Shown piece after piece: positions 13,975 through 57,355 of a stretch of 57,355 bases of DNA. Numbering within the stretch: position 1 is the first letter of the stretch; the number at the start of each line of letters is the position of its first letter. The stretch is taken from positions 1-57,355 of the IMG/VR virus record IMGVR_UViG_3300045020_000042; one strand, given 5' to 3'. The position numbers and the translations under genes are program-made. The notes under the pieces are model-generated. The model searched no databases. It was not told where the DNA came from and saw only the letters and a list, made by a program, of their open reading frames with translations. This stretch comes from a virus. Its lineage: Duplodnaviria > Caudoviricetes.

Positions 13975-14359
13975 GGAAAGCGCGATCGAGCGCTGGGTGA
14001 CGAAGCACGCGCTCGAGGACTACGGCGTCGAGAGCACGAAGTTCGGTTACGACGGCTGGCCGGACCGCCTGTTCTGGGTCCCGGCCCCGCTGCTCCTCAT
14101 CGAGTTCAAGGCGCCGGGTGAGCAGCCAGGCCCCCGGCAGTCGTACCGTATCAACAAACTGAAGAGGCTAGGTTATGACGTCGAGGTCCACAACAATCGC
14201 GAATCCGCGCTCGAAGCGATCATCAAAAGAGTCAAGCGAGCCCGTCATCACGCCCGAGGAACTGTTCAAACCGCAACCGCAGAAGTGGGCACCGCACGCG
14301 TACCAGAAGAAGGCGGTCAAGTTCCTCATCGAGCACGCGTGCGCCGCCCTGTTCCTTGA
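13967..14359 (+). CDS. VRR-NUC nuclease
   Basis: ESAIE, GWPDR, IEFKAPG, Q; sits before an SNF2 helicase. Confidence 0.85.
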   Translation: MAEESAIERWVTKHALEDYGVESTKFGYDGWPDRLFWVPAPLLLIEFKAPGEQPGPRQSYRINKLKRLGYDVEVHNNRESALEAIIKRVKRARHHARGTVQTATAEVGTARVPEEGGQVPHRARVRRPVP

Positions 14360-15755
14360 CCCGGGGCTGGGGAAGACGAGCGTCACGTACGGCGCGCTGA
14401 AGCTGATGTTCAAACGGCAACTCGTCAGCAAGGTCCTGATCATCGCCCCGCTGCGCGTCTGTCACCTGGTCTGGCCGAAGGAGCAGCAGAAGTGGATGGA
14501 CTTCGCGGAGCTGCGTGTCGTCGTCCTGCACGGCGCGAAGAAGGACGAACTGCTGAAGCAGGACGCCGACATCTACGTGATCAACCCCGAGGGCCTCGAC
14601 TGGCTGCTCGACACGCACAAGACGAAGACGCCGAAGGGCAAGACGAAGGTCGAGGTCGACCTGCGGCGCTGGCGGCTCTTGGGGTTCGATACGCTCATCA
14701 TCGATGAGCTGAGCAAGTTCAAGCATGTATCGACGAACCGCTTCAAGGCGCTGAAGCTCGTGTTGCACACCTTCGGCCGCCGCTGGGGCCTGACCGGGAG
14801 CCCGGCCGCGAACGGGCTGCTCGACCTGTTCGGGCAGTGCTACATCCTCGACCAGGGGCGGAGCCTCGGGCCGTTCATCACTCACTACCGGAGCAAGTAC
14901 TTCGAGACCGTGGACAAGGAGGGGTTCGTCTGGGTCCCGAAGCCTGGCGCGGAGGAGGCGATCTACGAGCGTGTTGCGCCGCTGGCCCTTCGCATGGCTG
15001 CGGAGGACTACCTGGAGCTGCCGGAGCTCGTCCAGAACGTCGTCAAGCTCGATCTGCCGCCCGACGTCCGTAAGGTTTACGACCAGCTCGAGGAGGACCT
15101 TATAACGCGTCTTGACGAGGGCGTCGTCGTCGCGCAGAACGCGGCCGCGGCGTCGGTCAAGTGCCGGCAGGTCGCTAACGGAGGGATCTACCTGACGCCC
15201 GACCTCGAGATCACCGGGTTCAAGCTCCCGAAGGTCAAGCGGGAGTGGGTGAACCTGCACACGGTCAAGGTCGACGCGCTGGCCGACCTGATCGACGAAC
15301 TCCAGGGGTCGCCGCTGCTCGTTGCGTACGACTTTGAGCACGACCTCGACCGGCTCCGGGTCAAGCTGGGAACCGATCTGCCGTACATCGGCGGCGGCGT
15401 CAGCACGACCCGGAGCAAGGAGCTCGAGCGCCTCTGGAACGCGGGGAAGCTGCCCGTCCTCGCGGCGCACCCGCAGGCGATCGCGCACGGGCTGAACCTC
15501 CAGGAGCTGGGGAACCACGTCTGCTGGCACTCGATGACGTTCGACTATGAGCTGTACGACCAGTTCATCCGGCGCGTGCTTCGGCAGGGGAACAAAGCGA
15601 AACGGGTCTTCGTCCACCACCTGCTGATGAGAAACACCGTAGATGAGGTGATGCTGCTTGCGGTGAAACGGAAGGCGAAGGGCCAGAACGCGCTGTTTGA
15701 AGCGCTCCAGCTCTTGGCGCGCCACCGCAAAAAAGGTGTTTACATCGACCAGTGA
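14175..15755 (+). CDS. SNF2-family helicase
   Basis: DPGLGKT, IIDELS, LTGSP, HGLNLQ, QFIRRVLRQG. Confidence 0.92.
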   Translation: MTSRSTTIANPRSKRSSKESSEPVITPEELFKPQPQKWAPHAYQKKAVKFLIEHACAALFLDPGLGKTSVTYGALKLMFKRQLVSKVLIIAPLRVCHLVWPKEQQKWMDFAELRVVVLHGAKKDELLKQDADIYVINPEGLDWLLDTHKTKTPKGKTKVEVDLRRWRLLGFDTLIIDELSKFKHVSTNRFKALKLVLHTFGRRWGLTGSPAANGLLDLFGQCYILDQGRSLGPFITHYRSKYFETVDKEGFVWVPKPGAEEAIYERVAPLALRMAAEDYLELPELVQNVVKLDLPPDVRKVYDQLEEDLITRLDEGVVVAQNAAAASVKCRQVANGGIYLTPDLEITGFKLPKVKREWVNLHTVKVDALADLIDELQGSPLLVAYDFEHDLDRLRVKLGTDLPYIGGGVSTTRSKELERLWNAGKLPVLAAHPQAIAHGLNLQELGNHVCWHSMTFDYELYDQFIRRVLRQGNKAKRVFVHHLLMRNTVDEVMLLAVKRKAKGQNALFEALQLLARHRKKGVYIDQ

Positions 15756-48959: not shown

Positions 48960-49990
48960 GGCTCCATGTGAGGATGAGAAAATCGGTGGCTGACCCACGC
49001 GACTACCAAGATTCTACTCCAAAGTAAACTGTTTTTGAAAACATTTTGAAGTGGCGGTAAACACATATTTAAAAGACTTTTTCACCGCGCGTTTCTTCTG
49101 GGTGCAGGGGTGGCACGGTGCACGGAGCCGGGCTCCGAAGGGTCCAATGAACGGGATCACTAGTCACCAATAATCAAGCTCCAAGCTCCAAGCTCCGTGC
49201 ACCAAGTCTGTAATCATAATGTAATCTTATGGAATGTGGTTTTGTTCCTTTGGCAAAATTTCCCCAGGCAAAATTTTTTGCGTTTGCTGTCGCGGTTTTA
49301 GTTCCTGGCGCGCAGAGCCAGGTGCGCACCATTGGACAGCCGGCACACGACGAGCAGAGCGCCGGGCACCAGGTACTACGCACTACGAACAACAGTGAAG
49401 TACTACGCACCACGTATCATCGTCGTCGCGACGCGTATGGACTGATAGCAGATATTACGTAAAGTCGCGCCGGTCGGCTGCCGTGTGCCGAGCGCTCAGC
49501 GCCGGGCTCGATGCTCTCACTCGAGAACGTTCGACGTCGTATGATACATGGTGATATGGTGCGGTGTGGTACGTGGGTGGCTGTGGAAATCTGGAGATTA
49601 GGGCCTAGCACCGAGCCCAACGGTGTTGTGTGACATTATAACATCTCATTGTGATCATTTGTTCAATCACGAAACATTTGCTCATGAGATGTTATAACAT
49701 AACAAAGTTGTGAATCCGTCTCACAATATGAAACATTCAGAATCACGCCTGTGACGACCATGACGATGTGTCCATACGTTGATATCAACCCGGTCACAAA
49801 CGTGATAGAGACGCGCTACGTGAGTCTAAGCATGTGCGATCGGCCGGCGCGTGAACGATCGACGTCGAACGGTGACTCACACTGGTACAAGACATAGATA
49901 TCTTCACACGTATAATTCACACTAACGCGTGTGTGCACGATATAATGTAATCTAGTTCGGCGCACCACGCGGCGAACACGGCTGAGAACG
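48960..49990. promoter_or_regulatory. Divergent control region (about 1 kb) between late and early arms
   Basis: AT-richer, no credible CDS, TATAAT at 49911 and 49941, inverted and direct repeats. Confidence 0.75.
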
Positions 49991-50000
49991 GAGATTGGAA

Positions 50001-50159
50001 ATGCTCGGATACCACGCTCAATGGATTATCTGTTTGATCGAACGTCGCGCTGCTGCACTGGCACGCGGTGAAAACCACGCAGCACGTTTGATCGAAAACA
50101 AACTACGTCGCACGGTTCGTTCGATGTTTAACGACGACGATCAAATATCATACGATTAA
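50001..50159 (+). CDS. First early gene (52 aa, not in ORF track)
   Basis: GGAGA RBS; MLGYHAQWIICLIERRAAALARGEN... Confidence 0.65.
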   Translation: MLGYHAQWIICLIERRAAALARGENHAARLIENKLRRTVRSMFNDDDQISYD

Positions 50160-50161
50160 CA

Positions 50162-50215
50162 GATCGAAACGTCGCGCGAGCGGCGTTCGTACGTTACGCG
50201 TACGCTGATGAGATC
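50162..50215 (+). ncRNA. Type II hammerhead ribozyme HH1
   Basis: GATC-GAAA-CGTCGC(GCGA)GCGGCG-TT-CGTACG(TTACG)CGTACG-CTGATGA-GATC; predicted cleavage after GUU at 50187. Confidence 0.93.
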
Positions 50216-50235
50216 AACCGCTGAGGACAAAAATC

Positions 50236-50556
50236 ATGGCAAAGTTTAACTTCAAGAAGTTCAACGAACAAGAGCGCGTTGCGCTCGAACGCGCTCGCGA
50301 GAATCATCCCGGCGAGTTCTATGTTGAGATCGACTTCGCAACCGGACAGACTGACGGCGCACCGAACGACGAGACGAAAGAAATCACGCAGTATTTCGCA
50401 GCGCGCGGTCTCGACTCCGAGATCATTACGTTGAATGGTCCCGGCGGCGGTTGGCCGTCCGTGTTCGTCGTCGGAACGTTCGACAAAATTACCGCGTGGG
50501 CAAACAGCGCGGAATGGAAAGATTCAATTGATCTTGGTTTTATCAAGCCGCTGTAA
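50236..50556 (+). CDS. Early hypothetical protein
   Basis: GCTGAGGAC RBS; GPGGGWP motif. Confidence 0.8.
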   Translation: MAKFNFKKFNEQERVALERARENHPGEFYVEIDFATGQTDGAPNDETKEITQYFAARGLDSEIITLNGPGGGWPSVFVVGTFDKITAWANSAEWKDSIDLGFIKPL

Positions 50557-50565
50557 ACCAGACCA

Positions 50566-50619
50566 GATCGAAACGTCGCGCGAGCGGCGTCCGTACGTTA
50601 CGCGTACGCTGATGAGATC
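50566..50619 (+). ncRNA. Type II hammerhead ribozyme HH2
   Basis: Identical to HH1 except at the cleavage nucleotide (GUC, cut after 50591). Confidence 0.95.
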
Positions 50620-50636
50620 AACCGCTGAGGACAATC

Positions 50637-50843
50637 ATGAAAATCACGCAAATCAAGTTTGAAGTTCCGTCTGAGCAGATCGACGCAATTGAAGAACTGC
50701 TTGGTAATGAATGCGCGTTGTACGACACGTCGCTCGGCGCAGCGCTCGATAACAACGTTTTCACTGTAACTCTGCACTTCGACCCAAATATGGTCGATCG
50801 CGATACGATCAACAGTTTGCTCGACGCGATCGAATCCGTTTAA
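50637..50843 (+). CDS. Acidic early protein
   Basis: GCTGAGGAC RBS, Asp/Glu-rich. Confidence 0.75.
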   Translation: MKITQIKFEVPSEQIDAIEELLGNECALYDTSLGAALDNNVFTVTLHFDPNMVDRDTINSLLDAIESV

Positions 50844-50918
50844 CCCAGATCGAAACGCACTATACGGGCAAACCGCTAGCTCCCGATTGCTACCGCTTTT
50901 ACGCTTGAGGACAGAATC

Positions 50919-51116
50919 ATGGTCATGGTCAAATATTTCCATAACGGAAACCCAGTTACCACAGAACGCGCGTGGGAAATTATTACGCACGAGTCGGTCG
51001 ATATCGACCCAGAAGAACTTGCCGTACTCTGGCTTCATTCTCAATTTTCCGAAGAAGCACGTGACACGATTTTTGACTTGAGCGACTGCACTCTGGAGAT
51101 CGTCGTTGATGAATAA
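50919..51116 (+). CDS. Acidic early protein
   Basis: TGAGGAC RBS, Asp/Glu-rich. Confidence 0.7.
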   Translation: MVMVKYFHNGNPVTTERAWEIITHESVDIDPEELAVLWLHSQFSEEARDTIFDLSDCTLEIVVDE

Positions 51117-51222
51117 AATCGACTGGCGCGCTGTCGGCGTCGCGGTCATGGCGATCGTCGGCTGCGCGCTCGGCGCGGCCACGATCATCCTGACGTCGAT
51201 CGATCCGGACTTCATTTTGTAA
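51109..51222 (+). CDS. Small membrane protein (37 aa)
   Basis: GGAGA RBS; MNKIDWRAVGVAVMAIVGCALGAATIILTSIDPDFIL. Confidence 0.6.
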   Translation: MNKIDWRAVGVAVMAIVGCALGAATIILTSIDPDFIL

Positions 51223-51423
51223 CTTTATTACGATTCAAGATTTACATATTTTTGTACATAAGTTAGCACACCTCGTACTTCACACTATACAATGTAATCA
51301 CTGCAGTCTAACACGCCGCAGCAACGGAAATGGAAATCAAAGCTAGACGTCGTTGATGACGCTGCTGTACCAGGACCGGCACTCGTAACTGACTTTCTAA
51401 CTTTCTCGTATTGGAGATTTATC

Positions 51424-52236
51424 ATGATCGCTCAAACTGTCAAGACTTTCAAAGCGCGCTCGTCCGCGACGGACGTTCTTCGCGCTATCGGCGTACCCAC
51501 GCGTGATTACAACCTCTTCATCGAACCGGTCGACGGCGGCGTCGCATGCAAGATCGGACTCGCTCAGTCTCACGTCGAAGCGCTGAAGATCCAGACCCAG
51601 GTCGGCGGCGGCGCGCTCGTAACGACAGCAGCACCGAAGAAGTCGAGACGCGCGGTCAAGAGCGACCCAGTCGGAAAGTCGATCGCGCAGACCGCCGCGG
51701 GCATTACGAACGCTCTCAGCGACGTCGGCGCCGAAGCGGCCGCGAGCGCGATCGTCGAAGCAGCGGAGAAAGCCGTAACGCTCGTCAACCCGGCCGCGTG
51801 GCCGTTTCCGACTACGAAAGCGCTGCAGATCGCGAAGAACGCTGCCGAAGCGGGTCGCGGTCAGCGCGCGAGCGACGCGCAGACTTCCGCGAGCGTTCGT
51901 GCGACCGGACAGAACGGATCGACGGTCGTTGTTCCGAAGAACGTTGCGAAGAACGCTGGACTGAAAATCCACAAAGACGAACGTCCGTCGAAACTGAACC
52001 GCGCCGACGCGGCCGCGTTCGTGAAGAAGTCCGGGTCGACGCCGGTCACCGCGCCGGCGAAGAAGGCCGACGAGAAGCGGACCGTCTCGTCCGTCGCTCG
52101 CGCGCTGATCGTCGCGGGCAAGACGAACGAGGAGGTATGGGACGCTTTGGTCAAGGAATTCAAGCTCGACGACAGCAAGAAATCCTATCCGGCGTGGTAC
52201 CGCCGTGAATGCAAGAACAAGGGATTGATCAAGTGA
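51424..52236 (+). CDS. Ala/Lys-rich protein with C-terminal helical domain
   Basis: GGAGA RBS; C-terminus ARALIVAGKTNEEVW..LVKEFKLDDSKKSYPAWYR. Confidence 0.85.
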   Translation: MIAQTVKTFKARSSATDVLRAIGVPTRDYNLFIEPVDGGVACKIGLAQSHVEALKIQTQVGGGALVTTAAPKKSRRAVKSDPVGKSIAQTAAGITNALSDVGAEAAASAIVEAAEKAVTLVNPAAWPFPTTKALQIAKNAAEAGRGQRASDAQTSASVRATGQNGSTVVVPKNVAKNAGLKIHKDERPSKLNRADAAAFVKKSGSTPVTAPAKKADEKRTVSSVARALIVAGKTNEEVWDALVKEFKLDDSKKSYPAWYRRECKNKGLIK

Positions 52237-52836: not shown

Positions 52837-54984
52837 ATGACTACTAAACGTTCGCGTTCTCCCGCGAAACCCGTTATCGACCCGTCACTTGAACTGGCCG
52901 TGACGGAGAAACTTCGATCTTCGGGGCTCGACTTCGACGACGCGCGCGCGCTCGGGATCGACGTACTCGACAAGCACGCGGTCAGGTCGCTGCACCCATC
53001 GTTCGATCTCCGTCCGGCCATCAAGATTCCCTATTTTCGTCCCGACGATCCCATATCCGCGCTTCGTTGCGGGCAGCGGCCGCCGTTCTACCGGCTCCGC
53101 TATCTGACCGACCCCCCGGCCGGCCCGTTCGGTGAACGTGAGCTGAAGCCGCGACGTTACACGAACGAACCGCGCATGGGTGTCTGCGCATACTTCCCTC
53201 GGCTGACCGATTGGCCCGCGCTGATCGCTGACGTCGACCGGCCGCTGATCATTACCGAGGGAGAACTGAAAGCAGCGTGCGCGACGAAGCACGGATTTCC
53301 TACGATCGGGCTCGGCGGCGTGTTTAACTACGCGTCGAAGGAGCTCGACTTGCCGTTTCTCGACGAGCTCGACCTGGTTTGCTGGCTCGGCCGCGCGGTC
53401 TATATCGTGTACGACTCGGACCTCGCTTCGAACAGCAACGTCTGTCTCGCGCTGAACCGGCTCGCGCGCAAGCTGCAGCAACACGGCGCGAACGTTCTCG
53501 TTGGGTTTCTCCCGTCCGTTACGGAAGGCGGCAAGACGGGGCTCGACGACTTCATCGTTCATCAAGGTTCCGACGAACTGAAGAAACTGCTCGCGGCCGC
53601 GTCTCCGATGACGACCGAGCAGGTCCTTCACCAGATGAATGATCACAACGTTTTCATCTACGAATCGGCCTCGATCTGGTCTACACTCACGTTGACGAAC
53701 CAGCCCGTGAAAGGTTTCTTTGACGCGTACGCCGCGAAGGTGTTCGAACGTCGCGAGGTCAAAGTCGATAAGGACGGACTGCCAGTACTCACGCGCAAGC
53801 CGATGCCCGCAGCGAAGGCCTGGATTGAGTGGCCGTTGAGACGTGAGGCGGGGAAACTGTCCTACGAGCCCGGCATGCCGCCCGGTCTGGTCGACCACGA
53901 AAGCGGGTACCCAGAGATGCGGAGATGGAACGTCTGGTCGGGCTGGCCGGTTGAGCCGCAACGCGGCGACATCGACCCGTTCATGACGCTGATCGATCAC
54001 GTGTTCAAGGATGTCGATGAGTCAGTCAAGCGATGGTTCTTGAGTTGGGTCGCGTGGCCGCTGCAGTTTCCGGGGACTAAGCTCTACAGCGCCGTCGTCA
54101 TTCACGGTCGACTTCACGGAACGGGCAAGTCGTTGCTCGGTGAGACAGTTGGAAAGCTGTACGGGGAGAACTTTACCATCATCGGTAATGAGGAACTTCA
54201 CGGCAAGTATAACGGCTGGGCCGCGCGTAAGCAGTTCATTCTCGGCGATGAGATTACCGGCTCGGACCGTCGCACGCTGCAGGACAAGATCAAGCGGATG
54301 ATTACCCAGACGCGGATCCGGATCGACAACAAGTACGAGAAAGCGTACGAGCTGCGTGACTGCGTTAATTACCTTTTCACGTCGAACCGTGCGAACGCGT
54401 TCATGATCGACGACGACGACCGCCGGTTGCTGATCCATGAGATGCCAGAGGATGTGGTGCTTGACGAGGAGAAGTTTTTCAAACGTGAATACGAAACGTG
54501 GATCGATTCGCGCCAGGGCCAAGCCGCGCTGCTTGACTATCTCCTGAAGTATGACGTCTGCGACTTTAACCCGAACGGACGTGCGCCGATGACGGTCGCG
54601 AAGCAGCAGATGATCTATCATTCGAAGTCCGACCTCGGCGCGTGGGTCATGCAGCTTCGCGAGTCGCCCGACCAGCTGCTGCTCGGCGCCGCTCAAGACC
54701 TGTTCACGAACGGCGAGCTGCTCGCGTACTATCAGGGCGCGGACGTCAGCGGGCGGGATAAGGTCACCGCTCAGGGGATGGGAAACGCGTTGCGTGACGC
54801 CGGCTTCGTCATGGCGAATAAGGGACAGCCGATGCGCGGGCCCGGCAGCGTCGGCCGATATTACGTCATCCGGAACCCTGAGAAATGGCGTTCGGCCTCG
54901 GTCTCGGAGCTGGGTGCTCACTTAAAGGATCCGAAACCCGTGCCGCGTGAGAAAGTCACGCCGATCAAGAAGACGAAGTACTGA
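52837..54984 (+). CDS. Toprim primase (DUF3854-like) fused to SF3 helicase
   Basis: IITEGELKA, IGLGGV, IVYDSD, KTGLDD; HGTGKS, GDEI, FTSN...DDRR. Confidence 0.9.
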   Translation: MTTKRSRSPAKPVIDPSLELAVTEKLRSSGLDFDDARALGIDVLDKHAVRSLHPSFDLRPAIKIPYFRPDDPISALRCGQRPPFYRLRYLTDPPAGPFGERELKPRRYTNEPRMGVCAYFPRLTDWPALIADVDRPLIITEGELKAACATKHGFPTIGLGGVFNYASKELDLPFLDELDLVCWLGRAVYIVYDSDLASNSNVCLALNRLARKLQQHGANVLVGFLPSVTEGGKTGLDDFIVHQGSDELKKLLAAASPMTTEQVLHQMNDHNVFIYESASIWSTLTLTNQPVKGFFDAYAAKVFERREVKVDKDGLPVLTRKPMPAAKAWIEWPLRREAGKLSYEPGMPPGLVDHESGYPEMRRWNVWSGWPVEPQRGDIDPFMTLIDHVFKDVDESVKRWFLSWVAWPLQFPGTKLYSAVVIHGRLHGTGKSLLGETVGKLYGENFTIIGNEELHGKYNGWAARKQFILGDEITGSDRRTLQDKIKRMITQTRIRIDNKYEKAYELRDCVNYLFTSNRANAFMIDDDDRRLLIHEMPEDVVLDEEKFFKREYETWIDSRQGQAALLDYLLKYDVCDFNPNGRAPMTVAKQQMIYHSKSDLGAWVMQLRESPDQLLLGAAQDLFTNGELLAYYQGADVSGRDKVTAQGMGNALRDAGFVMANKGQPMRGPGSVGRYYVIRNPEKWRSASVSELGAHLKDPKPVPREKVTPIKKTKY

Positions 54985-57014: not shown

Positions 57015-57099
57015 AGGCGAACGGCCGACGACCGTGAAGTTCGGCCCACCAGACAGAGGTACGGAGGCTCTATGCAACGCGCCGGGGAAAGCCCGGTCA

Positions 57100-57152
57100 G
57101 GTCGAAAAGGTCGGGAGGACCTTCGCAGCGTGAGGCGCTGCCTGATGAGACC
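57100..57152 (+). ncRNA. Type II hammerhead ribozyme HH3
   Basis: GGTC-GAAA-AGGTC(GGGAG)GACCT-TC-GCAGCG(TGAGG)CGCTGC-CTGATGA-GACC; predicted cleavage after UUC at 57124. Confidence 0.92.
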
Positions 57153-57168
57153 CTAACCGAGGTGCCGC

Positions 57169-57355
57169 ATGGCCCGACTGATCAAGGTATCAAAGCTGCA
57201 GGCCCAGATGCTGAGTCGTGTCGGCGTCGCCACGGTCCGCGTAACTCGTATTCAACCCGTAACAGCTGAGGACGAAATGGAAGACAAATCAAAGCAGCCA
57301 GTGGTAACCGTATCTGCGCCACCCCAGGTGGAAAATCCACGCGCCCAGCGCCGCG
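57169..57355 (+). CDS. 5' part of the long-allele version of the gene ending at 563
   Basis: GAGGT RBS; MARLIKVSKLQAQMLSRVGVATVRVT-RIQPVTAEDEMEDK..., in frame with 117-563. Confidence 0.65.
   Translation, partial: MARLIKVSKLQAQMLSRVGVATVRVTRIQPVTAEDEMEDKSKQPVVTVSAPPQVENPRAQRR

Follow-up and report, generated by a model that had tools for sequence, protein, structure and literature searches.

Hammerhead ribozymes are found in clusters in prophages, where they flank single genes or short gene groups (Perreault et al. 2011, PMC3088659). The accessible part of that study describes three tandem arrangements that cleaved in vitro as predicted, one of them also in vivo in E. coli, and proposes as their role the conversion of long phage transcripts into gene-length mRNAs, circular and spliced products being considered there too. 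Besides, three type II hammerheads are described as active in vivo in Desulfovibrio in the available text of PMC8782182, and a 2019 review (PMC6765202, in its accessible part) still presents polycistronic processing as only a suggestion. Here we analyze IMGVR_UViG_3300045020_000042, the record of a soil phage (Duplodnaviria; Caudoviricetes) of 57,355 bp that is estimated to be complete; the window below means this whole record. Its plus strand carries three type II hammerheads, two of which, HH1 and HH2, bracket an open reading frame (ORF) of 106 amino acids (aa). We consider it probable that HH1 and HH2 are two copies of an early-operon module that cuts a long message into linear, gene-sized pieces. 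The layout, the processing idea and the idea of a circle have been in print since 2011, and as a phage hammerhead pair this one is ordinary.

As far as the clusters are described in the available text of PMC3088659, the locus shares with them the type II permutation, the position on the coding strand, the intergenic placement within a phage transcription unit, the occurrence of several copies per genome and the variability of the bracketed genes. In contrast to those clusters, the two copies here are identical at 70 of 71 positions, and the ribosome-binding site forms part of the repeat; a 4-bp GAUC helix makes up stem II and a 17-nt hairpin stem I, both fixed, and a pseudoknot is undetectable. 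The majority of type II hammerheads reportedly achieve fast cleavage by means of a pseudoknot between loop I and the 3' tail (PMC3088659, same part).

Two further systems are comparable in part. In retrozymes and viroid-like RNAs, as in this locus, two direct hammerheads would free a unit RNA with 5'-OH and 2',3'-cyclic-phosphate ends (accessible part of PMC6765202). Those elements have hammerheads of type III or type I and noncoding RNAs, whereas the hammerheads of the phage are of type II and the RNA is coding. Such elements need a tRNA ligase, and retrozymes also a reverse transcriptase; neither is encoded here, and the host is bacterial. Instead of a noncoding, self-complementary unit, positions 50188-50591 hold an ORF led by a Shine-Dalgarno (SD) sequence, with a fold stability of z = -0.23.

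The other system is the PeSL cassette, at which recombination shuffles, inserts and deletes genes and can yield DNA mini-circles (Arbiol et al. 2010, PMC2839356, as far as its available text goes). With PeSL the module has in common that short repeated regulatory units lie in variable early regions and flank single genes of unknown function; indeed, we found a repeated intergenic module around a single ORFan gene, in a variable region that the nearest relatives do not share. Comeau et al. 2014 (PMC4122927) is said to be a further PeSL-related paper. PeSL consists of a promoter and a terminator stem-loop and acts on transcription, whereas the module described here consists of a ribozyme and a ribosome-binding site and would act on RNA. 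In contrast to PeSL, recombination at hammerhead modules is suggested by the mosaic junctions of other phages.

The duplicated module and its ribozyme subclass

A repeat search of the window found a 71-nt direct repeat with a start-to-start distance of 404 nt, and direct reading of the sequence placed the sole mismatch at T50187 versus C50591. The earlier note had reported exactly this repeat with its single difference. It had also assigned the differing base to hammerhead position 17, which mapping onto hammerhead numbering bore out, and both triplets, GUU in HH1 and GUC in HH2, satisfy the NUH rule as it had said. The repeat spans the entire intergenic module and excludes the flanking genes, so that each window copy has the layout stop codon, module, GAGGA, ATG. 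Because the near-identity covers the whole intergenic region but no flanking gene, we infer that it marks a recent duplication, insertion or conversion via DNA recombination between modules, and not a functional requirement.

From its 5' end, the module consists of CA, GAUC (the 11.x strand of stem II), GAAA (G12, A13, A14 and A15.1), the stem III hairpin CGUCGC-GCGA-GCGGCG, U16.1, H17 (U in copy 1 and C in copy 2), the 17-nt stem I hairpin CGUACG-UUACG-CGUACG, CUGAUGA, a second GAUC (the 10.x strand of stem II) and AACCGCUGAGGACAA; the final 15 nt of each copy hold the SD sequence of the next gene. The core segment CUGAUGA lies at 50205-50211 in HH1 and 50609-50615 in HH2, and GAAA lies at 50166-50169 and 50570-50573, respectively. 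Both elements have the full core (C3 U4 G5 A6 N7 G8 A9; G12 A13 A14) and the pairs G10.1-C11.1 and A15.1-U16.1, and since loops close stems I and III while stem II is left open, they are circularly permuted, i.e., of type II. The minimum free energy (MFE) and centroid folds of both 71-nt copies correspond to the expected three-way junction.

For statistical support we used a covariance model (R1) built from 20 phage contigs, with the window's own sequences excluded. Run on the whole window, R1 matched HH2 with 58.3 bits (E = 1.3e-17) and HH1 with 54.1 bits (E = 4e-16), and the alignment of HH1 and HH2 to the model contained no nonstandard pairs. The earlier note had taken both copies for hammerheads, and they are genuine type II motifs.

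R1 also found a third type II hammerhead (HH3; Table 1) with the stem II GGUC/GACC, the stem I hairpin GCAGCG-UGAGG-CGCUGC and a UC site of the GUC type, where the predicted cut falls between C57124 and G57125. HH3 lies 16 nt upstream of an ORF that begins at 57169 and exits the record end; since no plus-strand frame is open at the first bases of the window, this ORF appears to be cut by the record end. A weak R1 match at 15596-15636 (13.8 bits, E = 0.05) is situated inside a 526-aa ORF (14175-15755), has rudimentary stems and is probably due to chance.

Table 1. Positions of the hammerheads, repeat copies and small genes in the window
Feature	Position	Strand	Description
Promoter-like region	49889..49952	+	AAGACA-16-TATAAT at 49889-49916; second TATAAT in the motif ending AATGTAATC at 49944-49952 (consensus scan)
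First small gene	50001..50159	+	52 aa from ATG; stop TAA at 50157-50159 abuts repeat copy 1
Repeat copy 1	50160..50230	+	Complete intergenic module: HH1, spacer and SD sequence GAGGA
HH1	50162..50215	+	Type II hammerhead, GUU triplet; predicted cut between U50187 and C50188
Bracketed gene	50236..50556	+	106 aa, acidic (pI 4.7), NGPGGGWPxV motif
Repeat copy 2	50564..50634	+	HH2, spacer and SD sequence
HH2	50566..50619	+	Type II hammerhead, GUC triplet; predicted cut between C50591 and C50592
Gene downstream of HH2	50637..50843	+	68 aa, pI 4.1, without known family (Pfam, PHROG)
Third intergenic spacer	50845..50918	+	Initial 13 nt (CCAGATCGAAACG) and SD-to-ATG end common to the hammerhead modules; interior unrelated, without CUGAUGA
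Fourth small gene	50919..51116	+	65 aa, pI 4.2
HH3	57100..57152	+	Third type II hammerhead (R1 match 57099-57153), 50.4 bits, E = 7.5e-15

Relatives were collected with the pattern GATCGAAA-N25-55-CTGATGAGATC, which was matched by at least 118 viral contigs, and the matches were passed through a structure filter that demanded three elements in order, namely a stem III hairpin, U-H and a stem I hairpin that had to measure 17 nt; the two copies of the window pass it as well. Among the matches listed, 107 of the 126 viral ones passed the filter, compared with 4 of 25,200 shuffled interiors. In a negative control with contigs of prokaryote genomes, 5 of the 120 matches listed passed, and 120 is by estimate about the number expected by chance for that much DNA. 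Stem I pair 6 and stem III pairs 4 and 5 were not imposed by the filter; they were nevertheless standard in 88/88, 85/88 and 65/68 distinct relatives, respectively, with four to six pair types per position. In an ungapped alignment of the 20 sequences behind R1, all 320 cells pair, and in 10 of the 16 pairs both partners vary; covariation scored 0.728, against 0.147 for shuffled alignments, and none of 500 shuffles scored as high. Stem II is fixed by the search pattern and hence uninformative on covariation.

Placement is regular as well. Among the matches listed, 109 elements passed the structure filter; 106 of these have an ATG within 40 nt, mostly 18-29 nt past stem II, and 108 have a stop triplet within 25 nt upstream. 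Stem II is preceded by A in all 109 and followed by A in 101. Every relative has U at position 7 of loop I, and this U7 and the A's flanking stem II may form an alternative tertiary contact.

A subclass with a 4-bp GNNC stem II and a 17-nt stem I, without the pseudoknot, is thus abundant in viral contigs, and it is rare among the prokaryote matches listed. It falls below the Rfam gathering score, and routine annotation therefore misses it. Indeed, Rfam at its gathering thresholds returned no match in the whole window, and at E <= 10 a 1.4-kb search gave just three chance-level matches, to unrelated families. The Rfam model Hammerhead_II (RF02276) has permutation and core in common with HH1 and aligns with it end to end (model positions 1-66); unlike HH1, the model has a longer stem I and, to form the pseudoknot, an AGCC tail. 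In one viral contig (L092, 3034-6290, plus strand), we observed eight type II hammerheads in a row, all mutually different and spaced by 273-858 nt, an array far larger than that of the window.

Proposed processing of the early message

The module is a compact type II hammerhead with the ribosome-binding site of the next gene directly after it, and we propose that it would act as follows. Each ribozyme would fold during transcription of the polycistronic early message, the CUGAUGA-GAUC segment being transcribed last, and would cut itself after position 17. The resulting linear pieces would be one with the first small gene (50001-50159), a 404-nt piece with the 106-aa gene and one with the downstream genes. 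The earlier note had derived the 404-nt RNA and its gene content from double cleavage, and its arithmetic was correct, as 50188-50591 contains the ORF 50236-50556. The stem I hairpin, bearing a 5'-OH, would stand at the very start of each downstream piece, and each upstream piece would terminate in the hairpin of stem III with a 2',3'-cyclic phosphate. With hairpins at both ends, each cistron would have its own protected ends, so that its stability and translation would be uncoupled from those of its neighbors.

Motif, family, placement and repeat are established by the observations above, and the following points weigh against the proposed processing. Cleavage of this phage's hammerheads in vivo is something we infer from their sequences, and end protection is derived from general knowledge of bacterial RNA decay. 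Stem II is just 4 bp long and open-ended, and a longer-context fold of HH1 swaps it for alternative pairings. RF02276 matched HH1 only when the search was narrowed to 91 nt, with 20.4 bits (E = 0.022), compared with a gathering score of 37. Eleven related loci contain 19 GAUC-type elements, all of which Rfam at gathering left unreported; the sole match in these loci was a hammerhead of a different kind (in L082). As RF02276 misses these related elements too, its silence reflects the scope of the model more than the motif.

Furthermore, we could not detect a pseudoknot between loop I and the 3' tail: the window's copies allow at most 3 bp, and 95 relatives followed the distribution obtained with shuffled tails. 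Pairing of loop I with the 5' flank was likewise at chance level (27 observed versus 23-25 expected). Cleavage at physiological Mg2+ is therefore not guaranteed, and this is the main ground for caution about fast cleavage.

The operon and its surroundings

The terminase gene of the phage is on the minus strand and the primase gene is at 52837-54984; the AT-richer region between them holds an operon of small genes on the plus strand, in the order 52-aa gene, HH1, 106-aa gene, HH2, 68-aa gene, third spacer and 65-aa gene. The motif AATGTAATC occurs three times in the window (49218-49226, 49944-49952 and 51291-51299), always on the plus strand and in the AT-rich early region, with 0.06 occurrences expected. 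The hammerhead operon and a 270-aa gene at 51424 are each preceded by one copy in a promoter-like stretch, and the two stretches are similar (CAC-NATA-Y-AATGTAATC). This is probably an early-promoter consensus of the phage. An inverted repeat at 49629-49704, with 21-nt arms that are 86% complementary and 34 nt apart, lies in AT-rich sequence, with the divergent terminase genes on one side and the early operon on the other, and could be an operator or other regulatory site.

The four small proteins of the operon are mutually unrelated and three of them are acidic. The 52-aa product had no Pfam or PHROG match. The 106-aa gene is the only sizeable plus-strand ORF between the hammerheads; it is preceded by GAGGA, and repeat copy 2 follows 7 nt after it. 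Its product matched phrog_5922 (function unknown) with E = 7e-7 and had five distant, weak relatives among 1.84 billion representatives in a full HMMER search, whereas a word-indexed search returned only the protein itself. NGPGGGWPxV is invariant in this small domain family; the domain occurs twice in a 217-aa relative and also inside a 733-aa protein. The protein falls into no Pfam family and no named Atlas cluster, and its AlphaFold2 (AF2) model, with a predicted local distance difference test score (pLDDT) of 80, had no match in the PDB at E <= 0.001. Neither the 106-aa nor the 68-aa protein had relatives in the viral contigs searched.

The 13-mer CCAGATCGAAACG occurs in the window only at 50563 and 50845, i.e., at the second hammerhead module and the third spacer. 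We tried this spacer as a degenerate hammerhead and rejected it, since R1 did not match it at E <= 10. It looks like kin of the module, or its remnant, in which the ribozyme was lost or was absent from the start.

Sequence comparison placed the operon in a variable region. Positions 49900-51200 had no blastn match among 50,697 phage records, and the window's stem I plus core, used as a pattern, had none in viral contigs or in metagenome contigs. In 80 TerL-related loci (at most 77% identity), we found neither a type II hammerhead, by descriptor, nor a homologue of any of the four small proteins, and Rfam at gathering had no match in the six of them that were searched (L124-L129). The early region of the nearest TerL relatives (77%) differs from that of the window and lacks hammerheads. 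The nearest cultured relatives are Synechococcus phages with 50% TerL identity, and the hammerhead pattern was absent from the one searched, Synechococcus phage Ssp-JY42.

Position 17, recombination and RNA circles

The earlier note read the single difference between the copies as tuning of the cleavage rates. On this reading, selection would have favored U17 in HH1 and C17 in HH2 to make HH1 the slower of the two ribozymes; some message of the first gene and the 106-aa gene would stay joined, and the 106-aa gene would be cleanly parted from what follows. The lone difference does fall on one of the few core positions that tolerate change, and according to the accessible part of PMC3138052 the intrinsic rates of natural triplets are highest for GUC and GUA, with GUU listed as active. 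Moreover, R1 scores HH1 4.2 bits under HH2 from this base alone, and a U17-A14 pair is possible in the MFE fold of HH1, which would lengthen stem III by one pair.

Against this stands the rarity of U17. When position 17 was left free in the search, it was C in 100, A in 14 and U or G in none of 114 distinct elements from 106 loci among the matches listed, and U17 made up 1 of 109 elements, also among those listed, once the window's own two copies were counted; useful tuning should recur. It is a matter of one base in one genome, with no relative to show conservation. Furthermore, about 20 of the 71 positions (loops, N7, H17 and tails) are, by an estimate from the structure, free to vary under purifying selection, so that a lone neutral hit on H17 is unremarkable. 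Adaptive tuning is therefore unsupported, and we regard it as unlikely. With U17 in none of the 114 relatives, HH1 looks like a recent C-to-U variant, and its U17 is most likely a recent change in one of two freshly duplicated or homogenized copies. Judged by its triplet, HH1 is probably slower than HH2, with cleavage not abolished. HH1 (U17) and HH2 (C17) form a natural matched pair in which the effect of position 17 could be compared in its native setting.

A second alternative is that the modules matter mainly at the DNA level, as linkers for the exchange of single genes, with ribozyme activity being secondary or lost. Several observations point in this direction. Identical modules bracket one gene not only in the window but also in L013/L089/L204, L046 and L080: a 77-nt unit of hammerhead and SD sequence at a spacing of 534 nt around a 152-aa gene in L013 and L089, a 72-nt unit at 380 nt around a 100-aa gene in L046 and a 75-nt unit at 284 nt around a 68-aa gene in L080. 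A 52-nt hammerhead recurs without change at 14 places in 10 contigs, where seven gene families lie upstream of it and six downstream. Homology between related contigs starts or stops 5-23 nt from a hammerhead: L013 and L205 are homologous until 23 nt past it, at the start codon, and the ORF is replaced; homology of L019 with L209 resumes 5 nt before the hammerhead, and that of L019 with L208 stops 17 nt past it. The window's third spacer retains only the two ends of the module, and a precedent exists in the PeSL cassettes of T4-type phages (PMC2839356, in its accessible part).

However, the strong covariation of stems I and III and the invariant catalytic core show that selection acts on how the RNA folds, and not just to keep the DNA identical. 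Identical pairs are also a minority, i.e., 5 of the 36 adjacent pairs in arrays of up to eight hammerheads, three of the five belonging to one lineage, so that homology is scarce in most arrays. In phages, mosaic joints are often seen at gene boundaries with no linker present; the junctions fit gene exchange at modules, as is described for the PeSL cassettes, and could also reflect ordinary mosaicism in which the ribozyme is merely the only conserved stretch. The phage has no match to an SSAP recombinase (RecT, ERF or Rad52), which says little either way, and among the relatives found none is close enough to show an insertion or deletion. Taken together, we think it quite unlikely that the ribozyme is secondary. 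The suggestion of the earlier note that the direct repeats let the gene be gained or lost gains indirect support from other phage lineages; for this phage itself no close relative was found. A literature search on hammerheads as recombination linkers in phages returned nothing relevant.

A third possibility is a circular mRNA, in which the excised 404-nt RNA would be joined by the reverse ribozyme reaction or by a host RtcB, possibly in the retrozyme manner that the earlier note had put forward. RtcB-type ligation accepts 5'-OH and cyclic-phosphate ends, and the predicted ends of the excised RNA would suit it. The two halves on this RNA could in principle re-form one nicked hammerhead via GAUC/GAUC, and the idea of a circle was raised for such arrangements in PMC3088659. 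In the accessible part of that 2011 study, however, circular or spliced products were looked for and none is reported as detected. The type II topology puts stem I at the 5' end and stem III at the 3' end, so that the ends of the excised RNA would be held solely by the 4-bp GAUC/GAUC helix, which would have to bridge about 350 nt. Indeed, the MFE and centroid folds of 50188-50591 pair CUGAUGAGAUC with the coding region, the ends are not joined and the ribozyme is not re-formed. The fold stability of the 404-nt RNA is ordinary (z = -0.23; 40 of 100 shuffles were as stable), and the RNA is a normal SD-led coding message rather than a structured noncoding rod. Besides, the hammerhead equilibrium is described as strongly favoring cleavage (PMC3138052, available part), and the phage record has no match to RVT_1, RtcB or RNA_ligase, i.e., no reverse transcriptase, RtcB or RNA ligase of its own. 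Retrozyme-like circularization is therefore unsupported, and a circular mRNA appears very improbable. A literature search on circular RNA from phage hammerheads returned general reviews of circular RNAs only.

Among sequencing runs, a search for holders of this stretch listed one run of DNA and none of RNA. That the duplicated module or the T/C difference is a misassembly or sequencing error is hardly credible: de Bruijn contigs of the sole DNA run do break exactly at the repeat, with the gene-bearing piece unlisted and no joint given, but a 31,755-nt contig with a mean depth of 18 covers the unique upstream flank through T50187 to 50217 with zero differences, which ties T50187 to the unique flank of HH1 itself and speaks against a random read error, a repeat of 71 nt is short enough that single reads of usual length could bridge it, and the same arrangement recurs in independent contigs. 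The DNA run is possibly the source of the record, so that its contigs are not an independent confirmation, and the depth of the collapsed 43-nt piece (28.4, compared with 18.1 and 16.8) is too noisy for a copy number.

We thus return to cleavage of the early message into linear gene-sized mRNAs as the preferred reading. As the module always bears the ribosome-binding site of the next gene, it is a natural "insulator" unit. In addition, we tentatively raise the possibility that hammerhead-plus-ribosome-binding-site modules are portable junctions, the ribozyme counterpart of PeSL cassettes. Such modules occur at many gene boundaries, and they are short and strongly conserved, so that recombination between them could insert, delete or swap exact ORFs in early operons. 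An inserted gene would arrive ready for expression, since each module would provide the site of cleavage, a 5' hairpin for protection and a ribosome-binding site. If this is true, the 70/71 pair would be the scar of a recent single-gene insertion, possibly from a one-module circle, which would also be the product of the reverse deletion, and the third spacer, which has no hammerhead, would be an older junction that has decayed. That identical modules lie at mosaic junctions suggests that they take part in the shuffling of genes in the early regions of phages.

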